Virus record (IMG/VR): IMGVR_UViG_2571042390_000006
Location: 1-29,803 of that record
Direction: 5' to 3' (one strand)
DNA: 29,803 nucleotides
From: a virus
Taxonomy: Duplodnaviria > Heunggongvirae > Uroviricota > Caudoviricetes
Shown: piece after piece, positions 5,602 through 28,800 of the stretch
Position numbering within the stretch: position 1 is the first letter of the stretch
How the letters are laid out: each line of letters opens with the position of its first letter
Program-made: the position numbers and the translations under genes
The notes under the pieces: model-generated
Seen by the model: only the letters and a program-made list of their open reading frames with translations
Told to the model about the DNA's origin: nothing
Database searches by the model: none

Positions 5602-5832
5602 ATGGCAGACCGCAAACAGCACCGCACTATCGCGGAGCGTCGTCACATCCAGACTGAAATCAACCACAGACTTTCCCGCGCATCACGCGTCGCGCAAATC
5701 ATGCACATCAATATGCTGCATGAGCGCAGCCACGCACTATCAAACATTTATTCCGCCTCTGTTTTCAGCTATCTGGCGGATGATCTGCACGAGCTTCAAC
5801 AGCTCATCCAGCAGCAAAACAAACTCCATTAA
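5602..5832 (+). CDS. Hypothetical protein
   Basis: 76-aa ORF with an AGAGG RBS-like sequence; no motif recognised. Confidence 0.4.
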   Translation: MADRKQHRTIAERRHIQTEINHRLSRASRVAQIMHINMLHERSHALSNIYSASVFSYLADDLHELQQLIQQQNKLH

Positions 5833-6276: not shown

Positions 6277-9099
6277 ATGACGGCAGAGTACATCAGGGAC
6301 TGGCAACAACCGCGCCACGCAGTGGGGCGTGAAGGAACGGGGATCCCCGCTCCTGAATCCGCGCTTTCCTCCTGGCTGGATGCCTACCGGGCAGAGAACG
6401 AGCGCCGCCAGGAAATGGCTGATGCGGCGTTCTCCGCCACGCCGCTGGGCAACCTGATTAATAAAAGCCTGGACGCACAGGAAAAACAGGACAAAACCAT
6501 CACACTGGCAGGAGACGCCAGAAAACAGGCACGTGGCGCGGTGGATGAAGCCATGGCCTCGCTGCGCCTGCTGCCGTCCTATCTGCGCGATCCGCTTATT
6601 CGCCACCTCTCCTTCCTGCGCAAAAAACAGGAAGCCGATCGCCGGAAAGGCAAAAAGAGCTGGCAGGCTGAACGCTACGCGTGCGGAACCCTGCGCAAAA
6701 TATTCGAACGTCTGGACCGCACCGACCACCGCTGGCTGACACCGGGTTATCGCTCCCTTGCCGGACGCGAACGCCTGGATGATTTGCTTTACCTGCCGCA
6801 GCTCAACAAACACCAGATACAGACGCTGGCCACCATGACGGCGGCGATGTTCAGCAGCACCTTCGAAAAACTCTGCGATGGCTTTGGCGCGACTGATGGC
6901 GAGCTGACCATGGATGTAACGCTGAAGGCTTATCAGATGCTGGCCCGCATGGCGTTACACCTGCACGCCATGCCTCCACATTATGACGCACTGACAACAG
7001 ACAAAGACCGGAGGAACGAACCGGACACGGAGCTGCTGCCGGGCGCAATCCTTCGCCTGACCTGTGCGGAATGGTGGAAACGCAAACTGTGGCTGTTACG
7101 TTGTGAGTGGCGGGAAGAACAACTCCGCGCCGCCTGTCTGGTTTCCAGAAAAACATCCCCCTATCTGAGCCAGGACGCGTTAAGCGAGTTTCGCGCACAG
7201 CGCGAGAAAACACGCGATTTCCTGAAAAGTTTCATGCTGGAAAATGAAGACGGGTTCACGATTGATCTCGAGACGGTGTATTACGCGGGAGTAAGTAACC
7301 CGGTTCACCGTAAGGCAGAAATGATGGCCACCATGAAGGGACTGGAACTTCTGGCCGAAGCCCGTGGCGACAGAGCGGTGTTTCTGACCGTCACCTGCCC
7401 GTCAAAATACCACGCAACAACGGAGAACGGTCATCCGAACCCCAAATGGAACGGGGCCACCATGCGCGACTCCAGCGATTACCTGGTTAACACGTTTTTT
7501 GCGGCGGTCCGCAAAAAACTGAACCGCGACGGCCTGCGCTGGTATGGCATCCGCACGGTGGAGCCTCACCATGACGGCACTGTGCACTGGCATATGATGG
7601 TCTTTGCACATCCGGACGAGATTGAAACCATCGTGTCCCACGTCTGCGATATTGCCATTCAGGAGGACCGCCACGAGCTGGGCGATGACATAACTCCGCG
7701 TTTTAAGGCGGAGTATGTCGACGGCTCAAAAGGCACACCAACCAGCTACATCGCCACCTACATCGGAAAGAACCTGGACAGCCGCGCCGTGGATGGCATC
7801 GACCCGAAAACGGGCAAGCCACGCGTTGACCACGAAACCGGAAAATCAATGGCCGAGAGCGTGGAGCGCGCCATCGGCTGGGCGCGCCTTCACCGGGTCC
7901 GTCAGTTCCAGTTCTTTGGCATCCCCTCCCGTCAGGTGTGGCGTGAACTGCGCCGCCTTGCCAGCCAGATGGCACGCAATCCGGAAGGCCCGCAACGGCT
8001 GAAAGATGATGCAATGGATGCGGTACTCGCTGCCGCCGATGCCGGGTGTTTTGCCACCTACATTGAAAAACAGGGTGGCGTGCTTGTTCCACGCAAGGAC
8101 TACCTGATTCGCACCGCCTACGACCTCGCAGATGAGCTGAACGATTACGGCGAACAGAGCGTACAGATTTACGGGATCTGGTCACCACTCATCGGGGAAT
8201 CCTCCCGTGTGTGCACGCATCCGGATAACTGGAAGCTGGTAAGACGTAAACCAGAACCGGAAGACAACGCCCACGAAAATGGTTTTGACCTTCAGGGCGG
8301 CCCTGCCGCCCCTTGGACTCGTGGCAATAACTGTCCCCGTGTACAGGAAACGGACAACAACGGGACAGAACAGCCGGAAGAACGGCCAGCACTGTGGCCG
8401 CAGCTTCCTGACGGCGTTGATGTGGATGACTGGATGCGCTCACTGAAACGGCACGAACGCCGGGCGCTGATGCGTTCGCTGCGTGACAAACAGGCAAAAA
8501 ACAGCAGTGATGAAATGCAGAGCTGGACACAGAGCCGCAAACAGCAGCGGCCTTTGCCTGATAACCACGAATTACTCGCTAAAGAATGGCGGGAATCTGC
8601 CGAATCTCTCGGCCTGCATATCGGTGAACAGCAGATGCAGCACCTGTTACGGGGCGGCAGCCTGTACGTTGACGGCAGCATCATTGCACCGCAGGGATTT
8701 GAAATTGTACGCAAACCGGATACCCGCCCGGACAGCCGAATCACGCAGCTCTGGCAGCGCCTGAGCCGTAATCACGGCGTAAGCAGCACGGAGATCCGCC
8801 ATAACCCGGTCGCCGGCTATCTGGAACAACTAAGGGCATCAGACCATGAAGCCGCCGCACGCCTGGCATCCACACTTCAGCAAGACCAGAACACCATGAA
8901 AACACCCGTTACCGTACTTTCTGACATGCTGCGCGCCATCCGCGACGCAGAGCACGCACAGAGAATCAGTGAAACAACTGAACGCGCCCACCGCAAAGCA
9001 GACCTGCTGCGGGGTGGCCTGACCAGTGGAAACAAAAAACAGACAGAAACGGGATTCACAAATCCCGTAAATGAGCAAAAAACGCGCCGCGATATATGA
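6277..9099 (+). CDS. A: Replication initiation endonuclease (P2 gpA family, rolling-circle HUH nickase)
   Basis: 940-aa ORF with VEPHHDGTVHWHMMVF (HUH metal-binding) and YIATYIGKN (active-site Tyr) as in P2 A. Longer than P2 A as I recall it, suggesting a C-terminal extension. Confidence 0.88.
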   Translation: MTAEYIRDWQQPRHAVGREGTGIPAPESALSSWLDAYRAENERRQEMADAAFSATPLGNLINKSLDAQEKQDKTITLAGDARKQARGAVDEAMASLRLLPSYLRDPLIRHLSFLRKKQEADRRKGKKSWQAERYACGTLRKIFERLDRTDHRWLTPGYRSLAGRERLDDLLYLPQLNKHQIQTLATMTAAMFSSTFEKLCDGFGATDGELTMDVTLKAYQMLARMALHLHAMPPHYDALTTDKDRRNEPDTELLPGAILRLTCAEWWKRKLWLLRCEWREEQLRAACLVSRKTSPYLSQDALSEFRAQREKTRDFLKSFMLENEDGFTIDLETVYYAGVSNPVHRKAEMMATMKGLELLAEARGDRAVFLTVTCPSKYHATTENGHPNPKWNGATMRDSSDYLVNTFFAAVRKKLNRDGLRWYGIRTVEPHHDGTVHWHMMVFAHPDEIETIVSHVCDIAIQEDRHELGDDITPRFKAEYVDGSKGTPTSYIATYIGKNLDSRAVDGIDPKTGKPRVDHETGKSMAESVERAIGWARLHRVRQFQFFGIPSRQVWRELRRLASQMARNPEGPQRLKDDAMDAVLAAADAGCFATYIEKQGGVLVPRKDYLIRTAYDLADELNDYGEQSVQIYGIWSPLIGESSRVCTHPDNWKLVRRKPEPEDNAHENGFDLQGGPAAPWTRGNNCPRVQETDNNGTEQPEERPALWPQLPDGVDVDDWMRSLKRHERRALMRSLRDKQAKNSSDEMQSWTQSRKQQRPLPDNHELLAKEWRESAESLGLHIGEQQMQHLLRGGSLYVDGSIIAPQGFEIVRKPDTRPDSRITQLWQRLSRNHGVSSTEIRHNPVAGYLEQLRASDHEAAARLASTLQQDQNTMKTPVTVLSDMLRAIRDAEHAQRISETTERAHRKADLLRGGLTSGNKKQTETGFTNPVNEQKTRRDI

Positions 9100-9175: not shown

Positions 9176-10135
9176 ATGAAAATTTGTATCGACGACGGCT
9201 CCACCAACATCAAGCTGGCATGGACTGAGAACGGCGAACGCCGCAACGCCATCAGCCCGAACAGCTTCAAGTCGGAATGGTCTGCGCCGTTCGGTGGCAC
9301 GCAGCCCGCGAACTACATGCTTGATGGCGTGCGCTATGGTTTTGATCCGGTCAGCGATCGCTTTGTCCAGACAACCGACACGCAATACCAGTACAGCGAT
9401 GTGAATGTCATTGCCATTCATCACGCGCTGGTCAAATCAGGCATCACGCCACAGGAGGTGGATGTGGTTGTCACCCTGCCACTGAGCGAGTATTTCGACA
9501 CAAACGCACAGCCGGACATGGCCAACATCAACCGCAAAAAAGCGAACGTTATGCGCCCGGTGGAGTACCAGAACGGCGAAGCATTCACTATCCGTAACGT
9601 ACGGGTTATGCCTGAATCCATTCCGGCTGGCTTTAAGGCACTGGCTGACATGAGTCCGTTTGAATCCCTGCTGATTGTGGATTTAGGCGGAACCACGCTG
9701 GATGTGGCAAAGGTTCAGGGACAACTGGCAGGTATCAGCCAGGTGTTTTGCGATCCACACGTAGGCGTTTCCCTGATGGCCGATGCCGTACTGTCGGTGA
9801 TGGCCACTAACGGTATGCGTACCAGTCACCACATCGCCAATACCATTATCGAACATCGCCATGATGAAGCCTGGCTGCGCCAGCACATCCACAATGACGC
9901 GCATTACGCCAGCCTGATGGCGGTTATTCGTGAAAAGGAAGAAACACTGAAACAACGCGTGATCCGCGCGCTGGCGGGTTTTTCGGGTTACGGGCGGGTG
10001 ATGGTTGTCGGTGGCGGGGCGGAGATTGTGGCACCCGCTATCCGCGAAGCCTGCGGAGTTAATGCGACTTTCATCGCGGACGGGGTGCCACAGTTTGCTC
10101 TGGTTAATGGGCTGTACGCAATGGACAAGGAGTAA
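9176..10135 (+). CDS. parM: ParM/StbA-family actin-like segregation ATPase
   Basis: 319 aa. N-terminus MKICIDDGSTNIKLAW and the motifs VMPESIPAG, DLGGTTLD and VVGGGAE align with plasmid R1 ParM as I recall it. AAGGA RBS. Confidence 0.82.
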   Translation: MKICIDDGSTNIKLAWTENGERRNAISPNSFKSEWSAPFGGTQPANYMLDGVRYGFDPVSDRFVQTTDTQYQYSDVNVIAIHHALVKSGITPQEVDVVVTLPLSEYFDTNAQPDMANINRKKANVMRPVEYQNGEAFTIRNVRVMPESIPAGFKALADMSPFESLLIVDLGGTTLDVAKVQGQLAGISQVFCDPHVGVSLMADAVLSVMATNGMRTSHHIANTIIEHRHDEAWLRQHIHNDAHYASLMAVIREKEETLKQRVIRALAGFSGYGRVMVVGGGAEIVAPAIREACGVNATFIADGVPQFALVNGLYAMDKE

Positions 10136-10139
10136 ACCA

Positions 10140-10451
10140 ATGACGACACCAACCAGACGGATAAGTTTCTATCTGAAGCCCGCCGCCGTCAAGAACGAAG
10201 GCGAAGCATGCGCCTGGCTGGACAGCCTTACACCAGAAGCCCGCAAAAGCGGCCAACGCGTGGCTTTTCTGGCCGGGCTGGCACTTCTGAAAATGAATCC
10301 GGCAGAGGCTTACCGACTGGCTGCATGGGCTGATGATGAGGCGTTATCAGTGACACAAACCAGGACAGAACGCCCCGCGTCACAGCCAGTATCAGCCGCA
10401 CAGATAACCAGTCAGATGGCCGGAAATATCCGGGCGTTATTTCCCGAATAA
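10140..10451 (+). CDS. parR: ParR-like centromere-binding adaptor (RHH)
   Basis: Internal ATG directly after the parM stop with an AAGGAG RBS. RRISFYLKP...WLDSLTPEARKSGQRVAFLAGLAL...NIRALFPE parallels R1 ParR (RRTIAFKLNP...TLDSIPQGERSRLNRAALTAGLAL...NILRSLFPKE). Confidence 0.7.
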   Translation: MTTPTRRISFYLKPAAVKNEGEACAWLDSLTPEARKSGQRVAFLAGLALLKMNPAEAYRLAAWADDEALSVTQTRTERPASQPVSAAQITSQMAGNIRALFPE

Positions 10452-11735: not shown

Positions 11736-12782
11736 TCAGGATGTGGGCTGGGTGTCTAACAGTGCGTAAGGGTTAAAGCGGATCACCTCTTCGCCAAGCC
11801 AGTCATTGATGTGCTTCATGGCCTCCATGACAGGCATCAGCTCGTTAATTGCGTAAACCCGCGCGGCCTTCTCCACATCACCAAACGCACTTTTTTCGCC
11901 CGGCATCGCCCCCATCAGTTGCGGCGGAACGCGGTGCGCAGCCAGCACATCATCACGGGATGCCGCCTTAACATTCATGAACTCATCTTTTGCGGTGATC
12001 TGCTGGAACGGCAAAATTTGCACCCCCTCTTTGCCCCCGTTGGGCGCATGAATGAGCACGTTTTTAAATGCACCACCACCACGCGCACCCTGTAACGTTT
12101 CTTTCAGGGAGTCCATGCTTTCGCGGTTTACCTGCGCTGCACCGATGTAGATGATGCACCCGGCGTGGGATCCGTTGTCGTAGTACAGTTTTCTGAACAT
12201 GTCCGCCGAATGAGAAAGGCTGGCCGAGAGTAATGCGCCAAGATATTCCGGCATGCCGTAGATTTCCTGGTTAATATCCGGATTCATCAGGTGGCACACT
12301 TTGCCAGGGCGAAACTGGAACGCGTCCTTGCCATCCTGCACATACCACCATGATTCAAGATCGCTTCCGCGTCGCATGTATTTCGCCAGGGCGTGCCGTA
12401 ATTTAAGCGGTTCGCCGAGCATATTGCTACGAAGCTCAAGGAATGCGTTACCGAACACAAACCAGTCCAGCGCCAGCGCCGAGAAATCCTGCCGGGAAAG
12501 CAGCGGGTGCGGGATGTAGCAACCGAGTAATACATTGCGCTTAAAGTAAAGCGCAGACTGATGCCAGGACGTTTGCCGGGCAGCTCTTGCCAGACCGTAC
12601 CAGTCCACCGGGGTTTCATACCACCGCCCGTTATCAGCACAGTACATATTATCCAGCAGGTCATGCCCGGTCAGGCGATAAGGACCATCAAATGTGAATG
12701 CACTGAGCGATGATTCTTTCCTGAGCGCATCAGCGAGATCAATGCGTGAACTCATGCGCACTTTTTTATTTTTTCTGCTCAT
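11736..12782 (-). CDS. Q: Portal (capsid portal vertex) protein, P2 gpQ family
   Basis: 348 aa. Size, position and overall sequence match P2 Q. Its start overlaps the P stop. Confidence 0.88.
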   Translation of the reverse strand: MSRKNKKVRMSSRIDLADALRKESSLSAFTFDGPYRLTGHDLLDNMYCADNGRWYETPVDWYGLARAARQTSWHQSALYFKRNVLLGCYIPHPLLSRQDFSALALDWFVFGNAFLELRSNMLGEPLKLRHALAKYMRRGSDLESWWYVQDGKDAFQFRPGKVCHLMNPDINQEIYGMPEYLGALLSASLSHSADMFRKLYYDNGSHAGCIIYIGAAQVNRESMDSLKETLQGARGGGAFKNVLIHAPNGGKEGVQILPFQQITAKDEFMNVKAASRDDVLAAHRVPPQLMGAMPGEKSAFGDVEKAARVYAINELMPVMEAMKHINDWLGEEVIRFNPYALLDTQPTS

Positions 12783-14485
12783 CAGAACTCCATAACCGTG
12801 AAACGCTCGTTTTCTCCTTCGCCGCCAATCGGTTCGTTAATGACAGCAAGCATGGTTGCCCACGCAAGGTCGCCGTGGCTGATCCCCCTCGCTCGGTCCG
12901 TTTCGTAAGTGATAAAGCCGCCCGGTGTTTTCACCTTACGCACGGCGTTAAAGGCCGCGACCAGCTCGCGTTCGGCGCGATCGTATTCCCACCGCCCGGC
13001 ACGCATTATTTGCAGCATTTTCAGTACCAGCGACCGTTTTGATGACAGCGTGAAGGTGTACGGAATAGCAGCAGGGAAAAACCGTTTCACTATCTGATAA
13101 ACAGCCTCCCCGTTCCCGCCCGTCACATCAATGCCGATGTGTTCCACGTTATAGCGACACGTGAACTCTTCAATGACTCTGGCCTGTTCTTCAAACTCCA
13201 GCCCCTGAACGCGTCGCGTCTCCACCGTTCGGAAACGGCCACCAGGAACAGCCGGAGGAACCACCACGGACACAGCACCGCTGTCGCCGTTGCCACTGCT
13301 GCCGTTTGCGTCATACCCAATCCATACCGGACGATTCCCCATCGGGCGGGGAGCAAAAGGTTTCCAGTCTTTCCAGTCGTCGTATCCGTCAACACCGCAG
13401 CCAATCAGGATATTCAGGTTAAATGCCGATTCCCCTTCGCGGACAAACTCACACATATAGAGATTGAGGAACTCGTCTTCGGTGTTTTCATCACGAATTT
13501 CGTCGATATCGGTGTGTTTCCAGCCGTGATTAACCACATCTTCCAGCGTGACAATTTGCCGCCAAGTCCGGTCAGGGCAGATAAGCCCGTTATGCAGCGT
13601 TTTCCAGTCCACAGAAAAACGCTGGCGTTTATGCGAGGCCTTTTTCTCGTTCCAGCGGTCGCCGTTCCAGTAGGCGTACGCCTCGTGCGTTTCGGTGGAT
13701 GGCGTGGAGAAGTAGGTGCGCCGCAGTCCGCTGAGGGTTGCCATAGCGCCAGCCACCTTGCGCAGTTCAGCAAAGCGACTGACCCAGAAAAATTCATCAA
13801 AATAAAAATTGCCCGTATAGGACTGTGCCGACGCAGCAGAAGTGCCGAGAAAATGCAGCTCTGCGCCGTTGGAGAGGATGATTTTATCGCCCCCTTTCAG
13901 CTCCACATCAACTTCAGCCGCGACCTTCTGAATAATGCTTTTAAACTGGAACGCCTGACGACGCGACGCAGACAAAAAAATCTGGTTACGCTGGTAAGGT
14001 TGCGCCACATCGTCACGCAGCGCCATCAGCAGAGCTTCCTGTGCAAAATACCAGGTCGCCCCAATCTGTCGGGATTTCAGGATCATCCTGTTACGTATCC
14101 CGGCTTCCCTGCAAAGTGTCAGGGAGTCAAACCAGCCCCGCTGATGCCACTCCAGCCTGCTGATGATTTTTTCCCGCAGTGCGGCAATCTGTTCCGGCGT
14201 GAAATGATTTTTAAGTTTTTTCGCCCGGCCTTTCTTTCCTGCGGCCATCACATCCGGCTGGCCATCATGCAGCTTTTTAAGCTGCCGGGTCAGCAGGTCT
14301 ATTTCCTTAAAGTCACCGCCTGTTTTATTCTGTTTTTCAGTAAGCTGGATGAGGCGCGCATCGATGGACTGCGTGACACGCTGCACGGGGGGCGTTTCAT
14401 CCCACTGGTCGCGTTTTTTCCACGCATAAATCGTGTTCGGGTTTATTCCCATCAGACGTGATATTTCTGCGGGCGGATACGACAC
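12782..14485 (-). CDS. P: Terminase large (ATPase) subunit, P2 gpP family
   Basis: 567 aa. Size and position match P2 P; sequence is characteristic of the family. The start appears to be GTG at 14483-14485. Confidence 0.88.
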   Translation of the reverse strand: MSYPPAEISRLMGINPNTIYAWKKRDQWDETPPVQRVTQSIDARLIQLTEKQNKTGGDFKEIDLLTRQLKKLHDGQPDVMAAGKKGRAKKLKNHFTPEQIAALREKIISRLEWHQRGWFDSLTLCREAGIRNRMILKSRQIGATWYFAQEALLMALRDDVAQPYQRNQIFLSASRRQAFQFKSIIQKVAAEVDVELKGGDKIILSNGAELHFLGTSAASAQSYTGNFYFDEFFWVSRFAELRKVAGAMATLSGLRRTYFSTPSTETHEAYAYWNGDRWNEKKASHKRQRFSVDWKTLHNGLICPDRTWRQIVTLEDVVNHGWKHTDIDEIRDENTEDEFLNLYMCEFVREGESAFNLNILIGCGVDGYDDWKDWKPFAPRPMGNRPVWIGYDANGSSGNGDSGAVSVVVPPAVPGGRFRTVETRRVQGLEFEEQARVIEEFTCRYNVEHIGIDVTGGNGEAVYQIVKRFFPAAIPYTFTLSSKRSLVLKMLQIMRAGRWEYDRAERELVAAFNAVRKVKTPGGFITYETDRARGISHGDLAWATMLAVINEPIGGEGENERFTVMEF

Positions 14486-15194
14486 GTTTATTTCATACCC
14501 GAAGCTTGATGCCTGGGCGGCTCACAGCGATTTTCAGTCGCGCATCAGCACACAGATTGCCCGGCAGGTGGCGCTTGACCGCATCATGATCGGCTTTAAC
14601 GGCACATCACACGCGGAAAAATCCAATTTCAGCACCAACAAGCTGCTTCAGGACGTTAACGTGGGCTGGCTGGAGCACATCAGAACCGATGCCAGTGAAC
14701 GCGTAATGAATGACGTGACGCTGACTTCCCGCAACATGGACAACACAGTGGCGCACGCGGGTAAGTATGCGAACGCTGATGCACTGGTACAGGACGCGCG
14801 CTCATCCCTGCTGGATGAATGGCACAAGGAAGCAGACGACCTCGTGGTGATTATGGGGCGCAACCTGTTTAACTCGCTGCGTCTGCCCGTGCTGAACAGC
14901 ATCAGCGGCCAGAATCCCAATGCGGAATTACTCGCCGGACAGCTCATCCTGTCATCGCGCACCATTGGTGGGCTGGATGTATTCCTTGCGCCGTTCTTCC
15001 CGGATGCAACGATGCTGATCACCTCATTCAACAACCTGTCAATTTACTGGCAGAGAGGCTCAATGCGTCGCCTGATGAAAGACGAGCCGGAATACAACCG
15101 CATCGCCACCTACCAGTCCATCAATGACGCTTATGTCGTTGAAGACTATGGCAAGTGCGCGATGGTCACAGGCCTGAAGTTCGCCGACAGCTAA
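14486..15194 (+). pseudogene. N: Major capsid protein (P2 gpN family), 5'-truncated fragment
   Basis: Homology to the C-terminal two-thirds of P2-type major capsid protein begins immediately beside the P start codon (YPKLDAWAAHSDFQ...DYGKCAMVTGLKFADS). No scaffold gene and no P/O intergenic region are present. Confidence 0.65.
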
Positions 15195-15239
15195 TCAACT
15201 CACGGCGGGCATCATGCCCGCCTGTAACGGAGAGAAAGA

Positions 15240-16181
15240 ATGATTACCCCTGCACAGCAACACTGGCAGAACGTGATGGCGCAGCGCGCAGGCCGGGCGA
15301 ATGAAGGCGTGGATCACGCCGCACGTACCGCGCATGAAGAGGTGCTGTATCGTCTGCGTCTGGCACAGGCCCGACTTAAGGGCGTACAGGCCAGAAGCGC
15401 CAAAGCCGCCATCAAAAAAGAGTTGTTACCGGACTTTTCCGGCTGGATTGAAGGAACGCTGGAGGCTGACGGCGGGCAGCAAGATGAGGTGATTGCCACG
15501 CTGATGGTGTGGGCGATTGACTGCGGCGATCTTCCGCTGGCATTGCGTATTGGTGCGTATGTGGTCCGTCACAACCTCATCATGCCGGATAACTTTGGCC
15601 GTACTGCTGCCACGGTACTGACCGAAGAAATCTGCAACCCGGTACTGACGCAGGCCGGGACGGATGCCGACGCGGATTTGTCCGCCTTTATCGAACCACT
15701 GGACACACTTTGGGAAATTGTCGCCAACCAGGATATGCCGGACGAAGTGCGCGCCAAATTATGCAAGGCGTGCGCCTTTGCCCGCCGTGGCCTGAGCGAT
15801 GCGGACAGCATGGCCTCATCACTGAAGCTGCTGCGCGAAGCGATGCACCTGAACCCGAACGCAGGTGTGAAACGCGAGATTGCAACCCTTTCCCGCGCCC
15901 TGAAAAAAGCCGATTCCGCAGCCGAACCAGAAGACGCCAGCACACCGCAGGCGCAGGACGAAAGCAGCAAAAGTAAAAAGACAACGCGGAAGCCTGCAAC
16001 ACGAAAAACCACCGCGACGCAGAAGGCGAAGCGCGGTTACACCGACACAAAGGGACCATCAGCGCACTGCGCCGGGCCATTGAGCCGCTGGGATACCTCA
16101 TTCGCGTGTCTGAGTGGTGGGAGTTCGACGGCGAACCCGGAACATTCAAGGTTGATGTTGGCACGCTGGACAGTGGTGTGA
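15240..16181 (+). CDS. M: Terminase small (endonuclease) subunit, P2 gpM family; 3' end uncertain
   Basis: N-terminal 250 aa match P2 M, including the basic tail KKTTRKPATRKTTATQKAKRG. The ORF then runs on as junk-like sequence overlapping the L-like frame. Confidence 0.7.
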   Translation: MITPAQQHWQNVMAQRAGRANEGVDHAARTAHEEVLYRLRLAQARLKGVQARSAKAAIKKELLPDFSGWIEGTLEADGGQQDEVIATLMVWAIDCGDLPLALRIGAYVVRHNLIMPDNFGRTAATVLTEEICNPVLTQAGTDADADLSAFIEPLDTLWEIVANQDMPDEVRAKLCKACAFARRGLSDADSMASSLKLLREAMHLNPNAGVKREIATLSRALKKADSAAEPEDASTPQAQDESSKSKKTTRKPATRKTTATQKAKRGYTDTKGPSAHCAGPLSRWDTSFACLSGGSSTANPEHSRLMLARWTVV

Positions 16182-16339
16182 CCGAGGAAATGTATCTGGA
16201 AATGGAACGGCTGATTGCCGATGCCAAACCCGCAAGTCGCCACCTTATCGGCCTGAACATTATCCAGGACATTCCCGGCTATCTGTATACAGGCGGTGTG
16301 GTCTGTGATGGTGATGTTATTACTGTTTATCCCGGATAA
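16106..16339 (+). CDS. Probable head completion protein fragment (gpL-like), start unresolved
   Basis: The reading frame is open from about 15977 but has no ATG before the GTG at 16106. It ends 10 nt before H. Shorter than P2 L. Confidence 0.35.
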   Translation: MSEWWEFDGEPGTFKVDVGTLDSGVTEEMYLEMERLIADAKPASRHLIGLNIIQDIPGYLYTGGVVCDGDVITVYPG

Positions 16340-16349
16340 GTGAGAAACA

Positions 16350-19007
16350 ATGAGCACGAAATTTAAAACCGCTATCACTACTGCCGGAGCCGCGAAGCTG
16401 GCAGCCGCCACTGTCCCCGGCGGGAAAAAAGTAACTCTGTCTGCAATGGCCGTGGGTGACGGTAATGGCAAATTGCCGGTGCCGGATGCCGGTCAGACGA
16501 AACTGGTGCATGAGGTCTGGCGTCACGCTCTGAATAAAGTCAGCGTGGATAACAAGAATAAAAACTATATCGTGGCTGAACTGGTTGTACCGCCAGAAGT
16601 GGGCGGCTTCTGGATGCGTGAGCTGGGTCTGTATGACGATGCCGGAACACTGATTGCGGTCGCTAACATGGCGGAAAGCTATAAGCCTGAACTCGCTGAA
16701 GGCTCCGGGCGCGCGCAGACCTGCCGCATGGTTATTACTGTCAGCAACGTAGCGTCCGTTGAGCTGAGTATTGATGCCAGCACAGTGATGGCGACGCAGG
16801 ATTACGTCGATGACAAAATCGCAGAGCATGAGCAATCCCGCCGCCATCCTGACGCCACGCTGACAGAAAAAGGTTTTACTCAGTTAAGTAGCGCAACAAA
16901 CAGCACCAGTGAAGAGCTGGCGGCAACGCCAAAGGCAGTAAAAGCAGCCTATGACAATGCTGAAAAACGTATGCAGAAAGACCAGAACGGTGACGATATT
17001 CCAGATAAGGGCGCTTTTCTGGACAATGTTGGCGTTACCAGCCTGACGTTTATGAAAAACAATGGCGAAATGCCGCTTGATGCTGACTTGAATACATTTG
17101 GTCCCGTTAAGGCTTATCTTGGCGTCTGGTCTAAAGCTACATCCACTAACGCGACGGCTGCTAAAAATTTCCCTGAAGACGGTGCAGTCGGTGTACTGGA
17201 GGTATTCAATGGCGGTAATTTTGCAGGAATGCAGCGTTACACCACCAGAACAGGCAATGTTTATATGCGCAACCTTTCTGGCACATGGAATGGTTCAGAC
17301 GGTCCGTGGAGTTACTGGCGTCAGGTTCAGTCTGCAACACGCCCCCTGAGCACAACCATTGACCTGAACACGCTCGGAGGCGCAGAGCATCTTGGTTTAT
17401 GGCGAAACAGTAGTGGCTCAATCGCTTCATTTGACCGCAACTATCCGGAAGAAGGAAGTTATGGTCAGGGACTCCTTGAAGTTCTTGAAGGTGGTGGTTA
17501 CTCGCGAACGCAGCGTTACACGACCCGCCGTGGAAATGTTTATGTTCGCTGTCTTTCGGCCTCGTGGGATGCAGAGAACCCACAATGGGAGCCGTGGTCA
17601 AGAGTGGGCTACCAGTCAGAAAGCCGTTATTACGACGGTGATTTGAATGATGTAACCTCACCAGGTATTTACAGCGTTACAGGTAAAGCGACCAATGGTC
17701 CAATACTGGACGGAAACGGCGTGACTGTACTCGGTATTCTGGAAGTGCTGAGGCGCTTTGATGGCGTTAACGTATGGCAACGTTATACAACCGCCGGAAC
17801 AGGTGCAACCCTTAAAGGTCGCACGTTTGAGCGCGTTTATACCGGCAGCTCGTGGAGCGAATGGCGGGAAGTTTACACATCTTATTCACTTCCCCTGAAT
17901 CTGGGTATCGGTGGCGCAGTGGCAAAACTCACCAGCCTGGACTGGCAGACCTACGATTTTGTGCCGGGCAGTCTGATAACCGTTCGGCTTGATAACATGA
18001 CCAATATTCCCGACGGTATGGACTGGGGCGTCATTGATGGCAACCTGATAAACATCGCAGTTGGTCCGAGTGATGATTCTGGTACGGGGCGCTCAATGCA
18101 TGTATGGCGCAGCACTGTAAGTAAAGCGAATTACCGCTTTTTTATGGTTCGCATTTCAGGAAATCCGGGAAGCCGCACGATTACGACAAGACGTGTGCCA
18201 ATTATCGACGAAGCTCAGACATGGGCGGCGAAACAGACATTCAGCGGTGGTCTTTCAGGCGAACTATCCGGCAATGCTGCTACAGCAACAAAGCTGAAAA
18301 CGGCAAGGACAATTAACGGCGTAAAATTTGACGGCTCGGCAAATATTGAAGCGTTTCCGCCAGGTGTTCCGCTGCCGTGGCCATCAGATACTGTGCCGTC
18401 TGGTTACGCCCTGATGCAGGGACAGACTTTTGACAAATCTGCATACCCGAAACTTGCAGCCGCTTATCCGTCAGGCGTGATCCCGGATATGCGTGGCTGG
18501 ACAATCAAGGGCAAACCCGCCAGTGGTCGGGACGTATTGTCTCTGGAACAGGATGGCATTAAATCGCACACCCACAGCGCCAGCGCATCCAATACGGATT
18601 TGGGTACGAAAACCACATCTTCGTTTGATTACGGTACTAAATCAACGAATAACACAGGTGCACATACCCACAATGTATCTGGTACTGCAAATAGTGCTGG
18701 CGCACATACTCATACCGTTCCATTAAGGAGACCAAACAGTGGCGGTATGAATTTCGACTGGCTGGATGGTGCATCAAGTGGCACGGTGGTGGGGAATGGA
18801 ACTGTGCCTTCTTCTGGCGCACATACCCACTCAGTATCAGGTACCGCTACAAGTGCTGGGGCACATGCACACACTGTTGGTATTGGCGCTCATACGCACT
18901 CTGTTGCGATTGGTTCACATGGACATACCATCACCGTTAACGCTGCTGGTAACGCGGAAAACACCGTTAAAAACATCGCATTTAATTATATTGTGAGGCT
19001 TGCATAA
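16350..19007 (+). CDS. H: Tail fiber protein (P2 gpH family) with divergent repeat-rich receptor-binding region
   Basis: N-terminus [25 protein letters not shown]...EVWRHALNK...[29 protein letters not shown] matches the P2 H N-terminus. Three internal QRYTT..GNVY..LS..W repeats and C-terminal GAHTHxV repeats. Confidence 0.88.
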
Positions 19008-19624
19008 TGGCATTCAGAATGAGTGAACAATCACGTACTGTAAAAATTTATAACCTGCTGGCCGGAACTAATGAGTTTATTGGTGAAGGTGACGCATATA
19101 TTCCACCTCATACAGGGCTGCCAGCTAATTCTACAGATATCGCCCCACCGGAAATTCCTGCTGGCTTTGTGGCAATTTTTAACAGTGAAAATGAATCGTG
19201 GAATATTGTTGAAGACCATCGTGGTAAAACGGTCTATGACGTGGCATCGGGGGACGCGTTGTTTATTTCTGAACCCGGACCGCTACCAGAGAATGTCACC
19301 TGGTTGTCGCCAGCAGGGGAATATCAGAAGTGGGACGGCGTATCCTGGGTGAAGGATGAGGAAGCAGAAAAGCTGTTTCGGATACGGGAAGCGGAAGAGA
19401 AAAAGGCAAGGTTGATCCAGGAGGCAACAGATAACATCGCAATTCTGCAGGATGCAGTTAATCTTGAAATAGCAACAAACGAGGAAAATTCACAACTGGA
19501 TTCCTGGAGAAAATACAGAGTATTAGTGAGTAGAATTGACACCAGTACAGCTCCGGATATCGTATGGCCAGAGCTGATGAATCAGGGTTATGTGCGGGAG
19601 GACGAGCAGATAACTTCAGACTGA
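19007..19624 (+). CDS. G: Tail fiber assembly chaperone (gpG/Tfa family)
   Basis: 205 aa. Start overlaps the H stop (TAATG). C-terminal region [23 protein letters not shown] is typical of Tfa proteins. Confidence 0.8.
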
Positions 19625-20151
19625 AATTTAGTGATGAATGTTGAATCATCAGGAATATCATGCAATACCAATGCATGAGCACCTATTGTGACATTGTTTC
19701 CTATACGCACTTTGCCACCAAGAATGGTGGCATTACAACCAATGGTCACATTATGTCCTATAACAATATCCATATCATTAAAATCACCACGTAGCCCAAT
19801 AGTTACCCCCGGTTTTATTGAACAATTTTCACCGATTGTTACTTTGTGACCGATAACAACACTGTTGAGATAAGAAATATCAAAGCCTTTCCCTATATTT
19901 ACAGTTAAAGGGACTGTTACATTATATTTATCAAGAATGAAACGTTCTATTTTCCCCGCAATCTTCCGGCAGTATCCGCCTTTATCAAAAAGGTATTTGG
20001 CTATGCGCCACCAAAATAAATAACGAAGTCTTCTATGTTTTATTGCGCGAACAATTGCCTTTCGCCAGGAGAAAGGACGCTCGCTACCGATTACTTCATA
20101 GTGAATACAGTCTTTAAGTTCATTAATATTCATATCTCTATTATTCAGCAT
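19588..20151 (-). CDS. Hexapeptide-repeat (left-handed beta-helix) acetyltransferase, CysE/WcaB-like
   Basis: 187 aa with repeated [LIV]-G-x-x-x-x hexapeptides ([22 protein letters not shown]...[34 protein letters not shown]). AT-rich. Convergent with G and overlaps its 3' end. Occupies the position of Z/fun in P2. Confidence 0.78.
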
Positions 20152-20313: not shown

Positions 20314-20808
20314 TCAGAACAGCCCTTTAACTGAACTGGCCGCGCTGTTAAGGGATGATGTCACTTTATCTTTGAAGCCGGACAGCATATCGCTGAACGA
20401 TGAGGATTGCAGGCGCTCCCGCAAATCCTCATCACAGCGTTCAAGGGTCAGTGAAAATTCTATCTTTTTCGCCTTACCGTAGCGATCAAACTCGGAACGG
20501 GTCGTGTTCGTTCCGGTCAGGACATACATGCCGTAAATCTGCCCGACGCCATCAATCAAAGGCCAGGGTCGTCCTGTATACGCCTGCGTGGTCAGCAGCG
20601 ACAGCGACACTTCGCCACCTGTAATTTCAGGATAAAGCACACCAGAAAGAACGATGCGATCATCACCTGCACCGATATACTGCCAGCTTGCTGAACGGTT
20701 AACGCGTTCATTTTTCACATGCCGCCAGCTTTTGTTTTGCTGTAACTGCTGATGCGGCAGCGTGCGCAGCTCAAAAACAAACATGCCGTAGATCATCATC
20801 ATGGCCAT
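20314..20808 (-). CDS. U: Tail protein gpU family
   Basis: 164 aa, downstream of the tape measure gene on the same strand; resembles P2 U. Confidence 0.75.
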   Translation of the reverse strand: MAMMMIYGMFVFELRTLPHQQLQQNKSWRHVKNERVNRSASWQYIGAGDDRIVLSGVLYPEITGGEVSLSLLTTQAYTGRPWPLIDGVGQIYGMYVLTGTNTTRSEFDRYGKAKKIEFSLTLERCDEDLRERLQSSSFSDMLSGFKDKVTSSLNSAASSVKGLF

Positions 20809-20814
20809 GACTCC

Positions 20815-23658
20815 TCAATCTTTATCGTAAAAACTGCCACGCCCGGCACGGGCGCGCCGTTCCATTTCTGCCCTGACCATTTCACCGACCAGTTTCGCCA
20901 GTTCGCGGGGATTCTGCGTAACAACGTTATGCAGATGAACATGAATTTCACCACCAAATCCGGAGGCAACAGGCTCCCGGTTACGGGAAGTTACAGGAAC
21001 TGATGCCACTGGAGATCGTATGGCCTCCGCCACCGGGCGGGAGCTGGCCGCAACAACAGGGACCAGCGCCGGAGGCAGCGGAGCCGGGACCACGGGTGTG
21101 ATATTAATTGCGGGGGCAGGCTTACTGACCTGCACAATCTTCCGCTCCTGCCACTCCCCACGAACGGCAAGTGCGCGGGGCAGGTTCTTAAAGACAATAT
21201 CGCCGGGGCCAATACGTTTTTTCGTCTCATCAACCAGCTTACCTGTGTTATCAGCAATTTTGCTGAGTCTGCGTAGCGTACCGGTATTGCTGTCTGTGAG
21301 CGGTTTATTGTCTTTGGGTTTATCACCTCCGGTGCCATTGCCATTTTCCGCAGACTTCGGCGGATTGATTTTCGCAATGTCTCCCTGAAACAGAGCAACC
21401 TTGTCCTGAAGAATGGCCGCACGCTGTGCGTCTTCGATTTTCTTTCTCGCCCTTTCCGCTTCATCCGGAAGCACACCGAGTTTTTCAAGTATCCACGCCA
21501 GCGTATCCAGCAACATTTTTGCGGGCGTCAGAACAAGCTGTAACGCACCGCCAAGAACGTTACCGAATATCTCGCCAGCACTGGTACATTTATCCAGCGT
21601 TTCCTTGCTGGACTCCATCGGTGACAGCAACGATTTAAACCAGTTAAACACCTGACTTATCCCGCTTCCGATTGCGTCAAAAACAGGACCAAACCGTTCA
21701 AAGGTTTCGCGTAACGGGGCCAGCCGCTCCATAATCCCGCTGAACACCCCGGCATAAAACGCCTTGATGGGTTCCCAGTATTTCCAGATGAGAACTGCCG
21801 CAGCCACAAACGCAGCAGCAATCAATCCGACCGGGCTGAACAGCGCCCCGATAGCGCCCCCCAGTAACGAAACGGAACCCGTCACCATTCCCCATAGTGC
21901 TGGCAGGAGCCTGACAGCATTCATTGATCCGGTCAGGAGAGAAAAACCAAGACGCAACGTGGCCAGCTTCCCGTGAAGCACTCCAATAACCAGCGACAAC
22001 GAGCCAACCGTTGCAGTCATTGCCAGCAGCGCACCGCCTGCTATCAGTAACTGGCGCGTCAGTACCGGATGGGCCTGTGCCAGCGCCGTCACCTTTGAGA
22101 CCACCCGCGTGAGCCACTGCGTGACAGAACGCAGCGGACCATCAATCAGATCTGCAATGCGGATACGCAGCCCTTCCCATGCACTGCCGAGTGATTTCAG
22201 GTCGCCATCAAGGTTATTGGCCATAACCTTTGCCGTGCGTTCAGCCTCACCGCGTGCGCCCTCAAGTTCTTTTCTCAGTTTGGGCAGGGAGCCGTCACCC
22301 GCCGCATCAACGAGAGCCATAAACGACGTGAAAGCCTCTTCCCCGGCAATGTCCTTAAAGAACGATACCCGGTCAACTTCCCCGTATTTACGGGTGGCTT
22401 TATAAAGGTCGGCCAGCACATCTTCCATCGGGCGCATTTTGCCGTTCGCATCAGAGACGGACACACCCAGCTCTTTCAGCGCTTCTGCTGCCGCCTTTGG
22501 CGGTGATGCCAGACGAGCCAGGCTGGCACGCATTGCCGTCCCGGCATCACTCCCTCTGATACCCATATTCGCCAGCACGCCCGCCATCGCTGCGGCCTGC
22601 TCCAGCGATATTCCCAGCTTACCCGCCACCGGACCTGCATATTTCATGGTTTCGCCCAGTGCGCGAAGGTCAGTGTTAGTACGGGTAAACACTGCTGTAA
22701 GCGTGTCACCGACCCGGTCCATCTGGTCAGCGGAGAGGCCGAACTGCGTCAGGATATTTGAGCCAATATCTGCCGTCTCGCCAAGGTCCATACCGCCAGC
22801 CGTTGCCATGCTCAGCACGCCGGGAAGCGCAGCCTGAATGGCCTGCGGTGTGAAGCCAGCCATTGCCAGAAATGCCTGCCCACTGGCGGCATCGCCTGCG
22901 GTGAACTGCGTTTCAGAGCCAAGTTTTAACGCCTGCTCACGCAGCGCCTTAAACTGCGGGCTGTTCTGGTCGATTCGCGTCAGTGCCTGAACGCGGGACA
23001 TCTCTTTCCCGAACCCGATCGCAGGCTGCAAAAAACGCCCGGCAGCATAGCCGCCCGCCGCTGCCGCACCAATTGCCAGTGCACCACCTGTTTTCAGTTT
23101 TCCCGCTGTTTCCTGCGCGCGCGAATACCGCTCACGCGCCCGCGTTACACGCGCAAGCGCCTGCCGTTCGCGTTCAAGCTGATTGTTGTACTGTTCGGTG
23201 CGTCTGATGGCCTGCTGGATGGTGTTATCGCTGCCTGTCAGGGAAATGCCGTGGCGTTTCAGCTCTCCGCCAAGCTCCCGCATTTTCTGAATTTCCCGCG
23301 TGCGCGATTCATTCAGGCGTTCAAGCCGGGTGCTTAACTGCTGCATCAGCTTTTGTTGTTTTTCGCTGAGCACTGTACCCGTGCGTTGTAACTGATTAAG
23401 GGCGTTAAGCTGGCGTCGTGCTTTCACGATACCCGCATCCGCTTTACTGACAGCGTCGCGGGCGCGCTCAAATGAACGCGCCTGACGCTCGAGATTTTTG
23501 ATCGCCCCCTGCGTTCGCTGGATGGAGTCACCAAACTGCCCCATCAGGCGGCGGGCGTTTTCGGCAGGCTGGGTCAGCCTGTCAACGGCGCTGAAAGCGA
23601 CCCGGATATCAAGAGTCTTCATTGTCTGCATTCCCGCTGCGAAGTGCCGCCCGCTCAC
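20815..23658 (-). CDS. T: Tail tape measure protein (gpT family)
   Basis: 947 aa, coiled-coil-rich N-terminal half and Gly/Ala-rich hydrophobic segments; follows the E/E' genes. Confidence 0.85.
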   Translation of the reverse strand: MSGRHFAAGMQTMKTLDIRVAFSAVDRLTQPAENARRLMGQFGDSIQRTQGAIKNLERQARSFERARDAVSKADAGIVKARRQLNALNQLQRTGTVLSEKQQKLMQQLSTRLERLNESRTREIQKMRELGGELKRHGISLTGSDNTIQQAIRRTEQYNNQLERERQALARVTRARERYSRAQETAGKLKTGGALAIGAAAAGGYAAGRFLQPAIGFGKEMSRVQALTRIDQNSPQFKALREQALKLGSETQFTAGDAASGQAFLAMAGFTPQAIQAALPGVLSMATAGGMDLGETADIGSNILTQFGLSADQMDRVGDTLTAVFTRTNTDLRALGETMKYAGPVAGKLGISLEQAAAMAGVLANMGIRGSDAGTAMRASLARLASPPKAAAEALKELGVSVSDANGKMRPMEDVLADLYKATRKYGEVDRVSFFKDIAGEEAFTSFMALVDAAGDGSLPKLRKELEGARGEAERTAKVMANNLDGDLKSLGSAWEGLRIRIADLIDGPLRSVTQWLTRVVSKVTALAQAHPVLTRQLLIAGGALLAMTATVGSLSLVIGVLHGKLATLRLGFSLLTGSMNAVRLLPALWGMVTGSVSLLGGAIGALFSPVGLIAAAFVAAAVLIWKYWEPIKAFYAGVFSGIMERLAPLRETFERFGPVFDAIGSGISQVFNWFKSLLSPMESSKETLDKCTSAGEIFGNVLGGALQLVLTPAKMLLDTLAWILEKLGVLPDEAERARKKIEDAQRAAILQDKVALFQGDIAKINPPKSAENGNGTGGDKPKDNKPLTDSNTGTLRRLSKIADNTGKLVDETKKRIGPGDIVFKNLPRALAVRGEWQERKIVQVSKPAPAINITPVVPAPLPPALVPVVAASSRPVAEAIRSPVASVPVTSRNREPVASGFGGEIHVHLHNVVTQNPRELAKLVGEMVRAEMERRARAGRGSFYDKD

Positions 23659-24138
23659 GCCAGCTAACCACTTCGCCGGGCGTCATCATGAAGATTTCGG
23701 CGGGCGACCAGTTAAAAATAACGGCAATATCTGCCACAAAGTCTTCTATGTGCTCAAAGCACACAACCGTGATCAGGCTTCCGTCGCCTGTTCGTTCTTC
23801 CCGCCAGAGTCCGCACCGCTCAAAAAATTTACGGCAACCACACATAACTGAATAAAGTCACGGGATGCCATTTTTTTGATCGTCACTTCATCCAGTCGCG
23901 GTGATGTCACTCGTGACAGCAGCGTAAACATGGATTCCGCTTTCAGATTCAGCACATCAGACAGCGACAAATCTCGCAGAGATCCAGCCTGCTCAATAGC
24001 CCCGGTGATCTCCACATACGTGATTTTTTCGCCGCCTCGCTCAATTGGTTGGGTAAGTTTTACGCCACGCTCACTGGTTTCTTTCACAGTGTCAGCAACT
24101 ACCGTGTTTTCGGTATCGATGTTTTTCGTCTCTTTCAT
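23609..24138 (-). CDS. Tail assembly chaperone E+E' (product of programmed -1 ribosomal frameshift)
   Basis: Slippery heptamer T-TTT-TTG on the minus strand (plus-strand 23821-23827) lies in the E frame. The -1 frame is open from there to 23609. Confidence 0.6.
23773..24138 (-). CDS. E: Tail assembly chaperone gpE
   Basis: 121-aa ORF between the tube and tape measure genes. Confidence 0.7.
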   Translation of the reverse strand: MKETKNIDTENTVVADTVKETSERGVKLTQPIERGGEKITYVEITGAIEQAGSLRDLSLSDVLNLKAESMFTLLSRVTSPRLDEVTIKKMASRDFIQLCVVAVNFLSGADSGGKNEQATEA

Positions 24139-24192
24139 CAGGAAACTCCTTTCAGTCAGAGGCGACGCACTGCGCCGCCTGCATATTACTTA

Positions 24193-24705
24193 TCAGCCAA
24201 GCCCAAGCGCGGAACGGATGCGATCGGGCACAATGTCCTTGCCGTCCTTCCGGTAAATGAAGTTCAGCAGGTCAATCTCCCACAACGGACGATCGTTAAC
24301 ACTCAGCTTGTAGTAGGTGTTTTTAATGGCGTAAGTGTGTGATGTGGCTTCGCCCTGTTTGGCTTCCCCCATATCAATTTCCGTCACGCGTCCGCGCATT
24401 TCGACTTCATACAGGTCGCTTTCTGCATCGGTGTAGTATTCACCCGCAAAACGCAGTAGCGTGCCGTCAATCGTGCCGCCATACTTAAGGAACAGCTCAC
24501 GAACTGCGCCCCCCATGACAAAGCTCGCATCAAGCGCGGAGTCGTCCAGACCGAGATCAATACTTACCGCACCCATCATGCCACCACCCCGGTAGCTGTC
24601 GGTTTTGCGCGTCAGTTTAGGCAGGGTGACGGACGTCACCTTACCCACTTCGTTTTCACCATCCACAAACAGCGTAAAAAAGCGAAGATGTTTTGGTACA
24701 GCCAT
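24193..24705 (-). CDS. FII: Tail tube protein (gpFII family)
   Basis: 170 aa, immediately downstream of the sheath gene; size and sequence are P2 FII-like. Confidence 0.85.
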   Translation of the reverse strand: MAVPKHLRFFTLFVDGENEVGKVTSVTLPKLTRKTDSYRGGGMMGAVSIDLGLDDSALDASFVMGGAVRELFLKYGGTIDGTLLRFAGEYYTDAESDLYEVEMRGRVTEIDMGEAKQGEATSHTYAIKNTYYKLSVNDRPLWEIDLLNFIYRKDGKDIVPDRIRSALGLG

Positions 24706-27156: not shown

Positions 27157-27198
27157 GCAACTTAGAATAGCGGCAGCACCACGTTAAGGGAGGTCGCT

Positions 27199-27459
27199 AT
27201 GTTCCGTTGTCCGCTTTGTGGCGCATCTGCCCGTATCCGCACCAGTCGTCCGGAAAATGATTCAAACACCGTGCGGCAAAAGTATTACCAGTGTAACAAC
27301 CTGGAATGCGGCGTATGCTTCTCAACACTGGAAGCTTTCCATAAATTCACATCGAAACACGCCTCCGGCGTTCACTCTTCAGAAGGTATCCCGTGGCATG
27401 AACTGCCAGCTTCACACAGGGGAAACAATCAGATGAGCTTGCCTTTACCTCAGAATTAA
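27199..27459 (+). CDS. ogr: Ogr/Delta-family zinc-finger late transcription activator
   Basis: MFRCPLCGASARIRTS...YYQCNNLECGVCF: CxxC...CxxxxC zinc-finger arrangement and N-terminus as in P2 Ogr. 86 aa, longer than P2 Ogr. Confidence 0.8.
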   Translation: MFRCPLCGASARIRTSRPENDSNTVRQKYYQCNNLECGVCFSTLEAFHKFTSKHASGVHSSEGIPWHELPASHRGNNQMSLPLPQN

Positions 27460-27648
27460 CAGGCAGAATTGCCGGAGTAACAAAAAAGCGATAGATTACG
27501 TGCGGGTGCCTTTCGGCTGATGGTCGGAGGGAATACCCGAAGGCCGGATGTGGAAAGGCCCCGGAAAACATTTCTGTTTAACCGAGGCCCTAACCCGTCA
27601 ACCTAGCAAGTGATAGGTTAGCGCCTCTCCAACAAAGGAGCAAGCGCT

Positions 27649-27789
27649 ATGTCGCAAAAATCGCTTACGGCCATCACGTTCTGCGTGACGGTAATCCTCA
27701 TCATCTGGATGCTGCACGGTTCGCTGTGTGAAATACGGATGAGCTTCTGGGGAGCGGAGTTTGCGGCGTTCTTACAGTGTAAGCAGTAA
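27649..27789 (+). CDS. Hok/Gef-family type I toxin (46 aa)
   Basis: AAGGAG RBS. Product MSQKSLTAITFCVTVILIIWMLHGSLCEIRMSFWGAEFAAFLQCKQ has an N-terminal TM helix, the SLCEIR signature and an AAFL.CK tail as in HokA/Hok. Below the ORF-track size cut-off. Confidence 0.7.
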   Translation: MSQKSLTAITFCVTVILIIWMLHGSLCEIRMSFWGAEFAAFLQCKQ

Positions 27790-28758: not shown

Positions 28759-28800
28759 ACGACACTGCTTATTGCTTTGATTTTATTCTTATCTTTCCCA

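Follow-up and report, generated by a model that had tools for sequence, protein, structure and literature searches.

Two independent deletions, both attributable to illegitimate recombination, have very probably left the prophage described here unable to build or to release virions. The window, that is, the whole stretch of 29,803 bases that we analysed, differs at 5 positions over its entire length from the chromosome of the E. coli O6:H16 ETEC strain 2014EL-1346-6 (NZ_CP024232.1; megablast and alignment). Judged by its sequence, it is a P88-like prophage of the P2 family (Peduoviridae), and represents the ETEC allele of the already described element Sp13/CP-933T. The closest sequenced phages are P88-like Peduoviridae (Xuanwuvirus; ~97% identity). 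Gene order and nucleotide identity (95-97% over ~19 kb against P88, blastn) place the element in the P2 family, and Pfam matches were obtained for the hallmark families PF05125, PF06056/PF03237/PF17289, PF05944, PF09684, PF05954 and PF04606, behind which stand the P2-type capsid, the gpP/gpM terminase, gpI, gpD and the Ogr/Delta zinc finger. Assignment to the Sp13/CP-933T type follows from a matching integrase, from insertion in the 3' end of tRNA-Leu(taa) and from the adjoining yecA gene.

Read from left to right, the RefSeq annotation gives integrase, early genes, replication gene A, parMR, portal and terminase, and structural genes, and the right flank continues with tRNA-Leu(taa), tRNA-Cys, tRNA-Gly and pgsA (RefSeq annotation and ARAGORN). 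The prophage is integrated at tRNA-Leu (leuZ), with 28.96 kb between att direct repeats of ~123 bp that were located by a repeat search; the repeat takes in the 3' 55 nt of tRNA-Leu(taa) (28801-28887), and attL lies ~107-228 bp to the left of the window start. Genes for the particle and for lysis have been lost from an element that is still integrated between its att sites, and the label 'cryptic', given to it in a preliminary description made from the sequence, is fair in view of the loss of essential genes.

Two gaps in the late region

Aligned with P88 by blastn, the window is collinear with it except at two internal gaps, and both of these lie in the late region. When the two deletions are added back, the element reaches ~35.6 kb, which is the size of intact relatives. 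For placing the junctions at nucleotide level, we used the FDAARGOS_1077 prophage (locus L004) as a reference with an intact late region; the late region of the window is 99.6-100% identical to it (blastn). The junctions and the genes on either side of them are:

12782..14479, minus strand: terminase large subunit P, truncated (tblastn, residues 19-583 only of the P88 protein)
14478..14481 (between 14479 and 14480), no strand: deletion junction 1, with 1,406 bp lost (L004 20481-21886) and TA microhomology
14480..15194, plus strand: 3' fragment of capsid gene N, codons 113-350 (tblastn, residues 113-350)
15240..16181, plus strand: terminase small subunit M, complete (266 aa; tblastn, residues 1-266), with its stop lost
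16038..16041 (between 16039 and 16040), no strand: deletion junction 2, with 5,194 bp lost (L004 23447-28640) and TA microhomology
16040..16339, plus strand: 3' fragment of baseplate gene I, codons 63-162 (tblastn, residues 63-162), with no start codon of its own

At junction 1, codons 1-18 of P are missing, as are the P/O promoter region, the whole scaffold gene O and codons 1-112 of N, and P, minus its 18 codons, is fused back-to-back with codon 113 of N. P is thereby deprived of the first 13 profile positions of its N-terminal, DNA-binding Terminase_5 domain, the Pfam match beginning at position 14, and the N fragment corresponds to positions 100-324 of the 327 in the Phage_cap_P2 profile. 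The GTG at 14485 is a fortuitous start for P, the genuine start and the promoter being deleted, and the apparent start of N, a GTG at 14433, falls in antisense P sequence. That capsid homology begins in mid-protein beside the divergent P, and that the scaffold gene, the 5' part of the capsid gene and the P/O region are gone, had been noticed before; blastn, tblastn and Pfam agree on it, and alignment of 14486..15194 with N gives a match that is limited to residues 113-350, hence a truncated capsid.

Conceivably, the lineage might have a naturally shorter capsid and late region, or the junctions might be artefacts of assembly. RefSeq does treat the capsid fragment as an ordinary CDS, and beyond this the idea is a bare possibility. 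We consider it almost certainly wrong, because the window and the RefSeq complete genome, which are 5 positions apart, have both junctions in common, because phages in which these genes are complete match the DNA flanking each junction at 99.9-100% identity, and because the capsid fragment spans just a part of N and of its profile. A shorter capsid lineage was rejected on this last ground.

At junction 2, the left end of which sits in a GTTAAC site, the stop codon of M has been lost together with L, X, holin, endolysin, LysB/C, R, S, V, W, J and codons 1-62 of I, so that the last sense codon of M is fused to codon 63 of I. The M stop TAA has been turned into TAC, which adds 47 codons that are out of frame with the I fragment. 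An ORF at 16106-16339 had previously been taken for L-like; it matches positions 95-139 of the 139 in the Tail_P2_I profile and is actually the C-terminus of baseplate protein I, L itself being absent, and RefSeq labels the I fragment a pseudogene of 'phage tail protein I'. Therefore, the junction that had been described as an irregular one between M and L is indeed irregular, with M running on, but its partner is I. By the same token, the reported absence of the entire block from holin to I holds for lysis, R/S and V/W/J and fails for I, residues 63-162 of which are present (tblastn, 53 P88 proteins). At each of the two junctions, the parental sequences share the dinucleotide TA only (2 nt), and neither window junction has an IS element or a long repeat.

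When all 53 P88 proteins were compared with the window by tblastn, O, L, X, Y, K, LysB, R, S, V, W and J gave no match. With these 11 proteins unmatched and N and I partial, the element does not have a complete set of virion and lysis genes, and the notion that the missing genes reside elsewhere within the element was rejected on the result of this search. Full-length alignments at about 96-100% identity were obtained for A, ParM/R, Q, U, T, E, E', FII, FI, D and hok (tblastn against P88), and int and ogr have complete Pfam domains. Together with H/G, most of these genes had rightly been listed as intact; P had been listed with them and does not belong there, since it aligns over residues 19-583 only and its own start and promoter are deleted. 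The remaining features of the element are:

1..1002, minus strand: integrase, 333 aa (Pfam Int_N and Phage_integrase), at the left prophage end
1008-1355: cargo DUF2511 protein (Pfam DUF2511), between integrase and repressor, just downstream of the repressor
1385-2035: cargo hypothetical protein, 216 aa, between integrase and repressor, just downstream of the repressor
2051..2455, minus strand: HTH immunity repressor (Pfam HTH_31; RefSeq annotation)
5602..5832, plus strand: derepression (P4 epsilon-like) protein of the early operon (Pfam PF25738; 93% identical to P88 gp14)
6277..9099, plus strand: replication endonuclease A, full length (tblastn, residues 1-940 of 940, 97.8%)
9176..10451, plus strand: ParM/ParR partition module, full length (tblastn, 100% and 96%)
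11736..12782, minus strand: portal Q, full length (tblastn, residues 1-348, 100%), the P/O intergenic region with the late promoter being deleted
16350..19624, plus strand: tail fibre H (885 aa) and fibre assembly protein G (205 aa), intact ORFs (Pfam)
19588..20151, minus strand: hexapeptide acyltransferase cargo ('serine acetyltransferase'; Pfam Hexapep; RefSeq annotation)
20314..25889, minus strand: tail operon U, T (tape measure), E', E, FII (tube) and FI (sheath), full length (tblastn, 97-100%)
26047..27789, plus strand: D (369 aa), ogr (27199-27459) and hok/gef (27649-27789) (tblastn; Pfam Phage_GPD and Ogr_Delta)
28732..28855, no strand: attR, a direct repeat of ~123 bp with its second copy 28.96 kb leftward (repeat search and ARAGORN)

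The integrase (RefSeq accession WP_001300279.1) is common to the window's genome and O157:H7 PV15-279, and the H and G proteins in RefSeq are identical to those in FDAARGOS_1077 and E8.

In P2 and 186, gpO serves both as scaffold and as maturation protease, and gpN requires its N-terminal part. Since the O, N, P, lysis and baseplate regions are deleted, neither capsid assembly nor packaging, baseplate formation or lysis is to be expected from the element alone. The earlier reading of the prophage as assembly-defective is consistent with all of this: there is no scaffold/protease, the capsid is truncated, P is without promoter and N-terminus, and the genes for head completion, lysis, tail completion and the baseplate are gone.

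Expression, persistence and the question of a helper

What might the remnant still do? In P2 and 186, Q-P and O-N-M-L and the genes that follow are transcribed divergently from the P/O intergenic region, and V-W-J-I-H-G have a late promoter of their own near the S/V boundary. Both of these promoter regions lie inside the deletions, and thus Q, P', N', M, I', H and G would be without late promoters, provided that the positions given in the P2/186 literature can be carried over. The TGT-N12-ACA dyad of P2 late promoters occurs at or below chance frequency and does not mark the late intergenic regions of the intact relative; therefore, the predicted promoter loss is based on positional homology with P2/186 and not on a motif. 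A simple scan detected no sigma-70-like promoter created at the junctions, and the only late genes to have kept their upstream regions are the sheath-tube-E-T-U operon and D.

Derepression, excision and replication are probably still possible, given that int, both att repeats and A are intact and judging from P2/186 and Sp13. A search for LexA boxes gave nothing above chance and no match upstream of the derepression gene. The allelic Sp13 prophage is reported to lack most morphogenetic genes in O157 Sakai and yet to be inducible by mitomycin, to excise and to replicate (PMC2669165). We envision that Ogr would then drive only the sheath-tube-tape-measure operon and D. Because capsid, packaging, baseplate and lysis functions would all be wanting, the element is expected to persist as a non-lethal passenger, possibly stabilised by hok/gef.

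Conceivably, the missing functions might be supplied from elsewhere in the cell. Copies in the host genome were counted as places matching chimeric probes, a count that does not resolve their locations. In NZ_CP024232.1, a probe spanning both junctions gave 3 matching places, the addition of reverse-strand O, holin/endolysin, V/W and J probes raised this to 4, and the count was still 4 when O, lysis and J probes were spaced against merging; the control genome F5656C1 went from 1 to 3 places, as its gene content predicts. So just one of the three probes (O, lysis, J) finds a further copy in the host at ~85% identity or more, from which it follows that the chromosome carries another P2-family element, either partial or divergent. 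The pdxB/flk site, which is occupied in sister strains, is empty in NZ_CP024232.1.

Partial complementation in trans by another P2-family element may thus take place. A stronger version of this idea, whereby the prophage is a helper-dependent hitchhiker that obtains capsids, baseplate and lysis from another P2-family prophage in the cell, appears unlikely to us. It would fit with the additional places in the host chromosome that match P88-like early and late sequences (2 to 5 per query), and also with the low-level packaging of allelic Sp13 DNA in O157 Sakai, which occurs despite the absence of head and packaging genes (PMC2669165). What speaks against it is that only one of the scaffold, holin/endolysin and baseplate J probes finds a copy at or above ~85% identity elsewhere in the genome, that no cos site was found, the window having no match to the 19-nt cos of P2 even with 3 mismatches allowed, and that 29 kb amounts to only ~82% of the full genome length.

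Recent, strain-specific decay at leuZ

The nearest described counterpart is Sp13 of Sakai (CP-933T of EDL933), which is likewise a P2-like defective prophage at yecA-leuZ with the gene order of the window and with its integrase next to yecA; the early region of the window is 99.4% identical to that of other O157:H7 strains. Both elements have kept the tail, D, ogr and hok end and have lost head, lysis and baseplate genes. In Sp13, however, the loss extends from parR to G and is associated with IS629, and the element carries IS30 and a tape-measure pseudogene, whereas Q, P', N', M, I', H and G are still present in the window, whose two deletions involve no IS element and have 2-nt junctions. 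The functional phage P88 (NC_026014, Xuanwuvirus) matches the window in gene order and at 95-97% nucleotide identity over A-parMR-Q-P, N-M and tail-D-hok, but its O-to-I block is complete, its integrase and its immunity region are different, and at the place where the window has a different H/G pair and the acyltransferase, P88 has a tail-fibre segment that is invertible and comes with an invertase. With P2 (NC_001895), the element has in common the overall late-gene architecture and the gpP, gpN, gpM, gpI, gpH, gpD and Ogr families, but P2 cos and ori sequences were not found in the window, and P88-like phages in general depart from P2 by a tail operon inverted relative to D and by the presence of ParMR and the derepression protein.

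Close relatives exist among sequenced E. coli strains. DNA shared with FORC_031, E8 and E2386 (at leuZ) and with the pdxB/flk prophages of F5656C1 and FDAARGOS_1077 is 99.4-100% identical to the window, and these relatives are all deletion derivatives of one late region, except for FDAARGOS_1077, in which that region is complete. Their breakpoints (parM/P, N'/V', O'/J', O'/M and M/FII') differ from those of the window; in E2386, one left breakpoint coincides with that of the window at the M stop codon, but its right end lies in FII. Both window junctions occur together in 1 of 5,426 complete E. coli genomes. The int-to-early region is present at ~100% identity in 9 genomes, the window's host included, and in 8 other genomes as well as E2386, which has lost the int side, the prophage at leuZ has other deletions:

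FORC_031, 254D-1 and 360D-1: deletions parM/P and O'/J'
E8, E54, E1648, E1654 and LR883050: deletions parM/P and N'/V'
E2386: deletions parM/P, O'/M and M/FII'

The deletions of these sister ETEC strains at leuZ are different and non-nested, and a single mismatch separates the window from FORC_031 and E8 in ~24 kb of shared DNA. Every leuZ variant keeps sequence that is absent from the others, and their union is a complete late region, from which it follows that a very recent ancestor still had a full prophage. Since then, the leuZ prophage has undergone at least six deletions but almost no point mutation (~1 substitution in 24 kb). As near-identical sisters have different deletions, the losses must be very recent and strain-specific, and therefore the intactness of the remaining ORFs reflects too little time rather than purifying selection. 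O157:H7 PV15-279 has a far more complete copy at leuZ; the comparison with relatives at this locus that the preliminary description called for thus supports the loss of genes, with one more complete copy and with sisters that are differently deleted.

The same description had proposed that the element is domesticated, in the sense that the host selects the remnant for its cargo (acyltransferase, DUF2511, hok/gef, ParMR) or for the tail genes it retains. Numerous ORFs are intact and cargo genes are present, and remnants in other strains likewise keep the early region and the sheath-tube-D-ogr-hok end, all of which would suit such a scenario. We nevertheless regard it as very unlikely and do not uphold it. 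The pair of junctions is confined to that one genome, and the near-identical sisters differ in their deletions, leaving too short a time for selection to appear in the sequence. The cargo is kept inconsistently, the acyltransferase being split by IS1 in E8 and deleted in E2386. Nor could a tailocin-like particle be formed without V, W, J, R, S and full-length I: a tailocin has a complete contractile tail, baseplate and lysis module, whereas V, W, J, R, S, holin and endolysin are absent here and I is truncated, and the conservation of a reduced architecture across lineages is not seen either, as relatives show many different architectures. Finally, the P-to-H late region is at least 80% complete in 1,039 of the 1,466 E. 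coli genomes that match this query (~71%). A recently and individually decayed prophage accounts for these observations better than a domesticated one.

A possible breakpoint preference and its implications

How might the deletions have arisen? We collected 18 junctions from 13 related prophage copies (the window and 12 public genomes), with variants aligned to L004; F5656C1, TH9F11, AR_0119, P15-25, W13-16, E300010 and TW10598 were further variants aligned. Microhomology of at least 2 nt is found at all 18 junctions, and random breakpoints give this in 16% of cases in a simulation. TA, the rarest dinucleotide of the region (3.5%), occurs in 12 of the 18; when the simulation was run, the tally stood at 9 of 15, against 2.9% expected for junctions of at least 2 nt (binomial tail ~7e-11, post hoc). 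Of 10 occurrences of GTTAAC in the 28-kb region, three form the exact left end (GTTA/AC) of four independent deletions, namely window junction 2, M/FII' of E2386, the TH9F11-type N'/I' and O'/J of P15-25, and window junction 1 is located in GATA/AC. Moreover, three breakpoints have been reused at nucleotide resolution with different partners: L004 23446 in the window and E2386, L004 19283 in the leuZ parM/P deletion and in A'/P of F5656C1, and L004 ~20553 in the O deletion of F5656C1 and in the Q'/intergenic deletion of AR_0119. The lysis cassette has been removed in 9 of the 11 deletion variants, and its loss is convergent.

It is possible, if somewhat doubtful, that the crippling deletions of P88-like prophages are non-random and stem from a sequence-preferring DNA breaking and joining activity. 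Such an activity might be an enzyme that cuts at TA with a 2-nt stagger, a TA-specific transposase with subsequent excision, or restriction at GTTAAC with end joining afterwards, and the breakpoint preference would be compounded by selection for variants that have lost the lysis cassette. Pseudo-nicking by gpA was dropped as a cause of the breakpoints, because the sequence nicked at the P2 ori is not TA-like and does not occur in the window. Compared by eye, none of the target consensus sequences of invertases (hix/gix-like), IS5 (YTAR), Tn5 and EcoKI fits the hotspot. The literature that we searched on ETEC P2-like defective prophages, illegitimate recombination and GTTAAC deletion hotspots yielded nothing relevant.

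Seen as a prophage, the element is one more ordinary defective member of the P2 family, allelic to the known Sp13. Its annotation needs correcting, as the truncated capsid and terminase stand in RefSeq as if they were normal genes, and the fragment of gpI invites misreading. The near-identical ETEC set shows that prophage decay by large deletions outruns point mutation. If the recurrence of TA and GTTAAC at breakpoints were confirmed in a larger survey, it would point to a specific mechanism of prophage inactivation and would be of wider interest.

Deletion end-points and the lysis cassette

Among the related prophages, deletion end-points are reused to the same nucleotide with different partners. 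The junctions compared are the window's two (14479/14480 on the capsid/terminase side and 16039/16040 on the M/I side) and those of loci L003, L006 and L009-L016. The FDAARGOS_1077 prophage (L004), with its complete late region, provides the coordinates.

L004 19283, 20553, 21043, 22065, 23446: deletion junction positions in related prophages

TA microhomology is strongly enriched at the end-points of the window and of the related prophages, and GTTAAC/GATAAC sites are likewise strongly enriched there. Nearly all deletions in the related prophages span the lysis cassette. In the ETEC1717 relative (L017 7946-8869), a GH108 lysozyme takes the place of the M15 endolysin and LysB/C; this relative is otherwise collinear, and the change is a module swap, not a deletion.

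Annotation of the truncated and frameshifted genes

The two fragments flanking the capsid/terminase junction are treated by PGAP as ordinary protein-coding genes, with annotated 5' ends that overlap on opposite strands; the pseudogene flag is reserved for M and I.

14433-15194: capsid fragment (RefSeq CNZ63_RS21005)
12782-14491: 5'-truncated terminase (RefSeq CNZ63_RS21010)
4076-4493: frameshifted early-region gene, pseudogene per RefSeq

The early-region gene is the sole point-mutational pseudogene seen in the element; it is frameshifted in the sister ETEC strains too, whereas the O157:H7 copy is intact (417 nt). The window is not an exact copy of the RefSeq assembly NZ_CP024232.1: single bases differ at five positions (64, 8319, 8884, 11757 and 11759), and the last two, separated by 2 nt, fall close to where portal gene Q ends (3').

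Related elements and neighbouring islands

An early-region probe finds two places in NZ_CP024232.1 versus one in the sister strain FORC_031, and a probe from the FORC_031 junction region (A end, P', O', J', I) finds five versus one. These place counts indicate that the chromosome of the window's strain carries another P88-like element, which would be missing from FORC_031. The pdxB/flk attachment site of this strain holds no prophage (L005 39028-41258, i.e., NZ_CP024232.1 3614027-3616257), whereas in F5656C1 and FDAARGOS_1077 it is occupied by prophages with a nearly identical late region; thus, one late module is combined with two distinct sets of integrase and immunity genes.

A second island immediately adjoins attL to the left of the window (L002 1-5600). 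In the window's strain its integrase is interrupted by an IS21-family element (ISEc62); in FORC_031 and E8 it is unbroken.

Cargo and possible stability genes

19588-20151, minus strand: hexapeptide acyltransferase cargo gene
9176-10451: plasmid-type ParM/ParR partition module
10515-10847: ClpX-type zinc-finger protein
27649-27789: hok/gef toxin

The acyltransferase gene is convergent with the tail-fibre assembly gene G, overlapping its 3' end by 37 nt; in strain E8 it is split by IS1, and in TH9F11 a glycosyltransferase takes its place. The remaining three features are all carried by one integrated P2-family prophage, and may act as stabilisers of its excised or integrated form.
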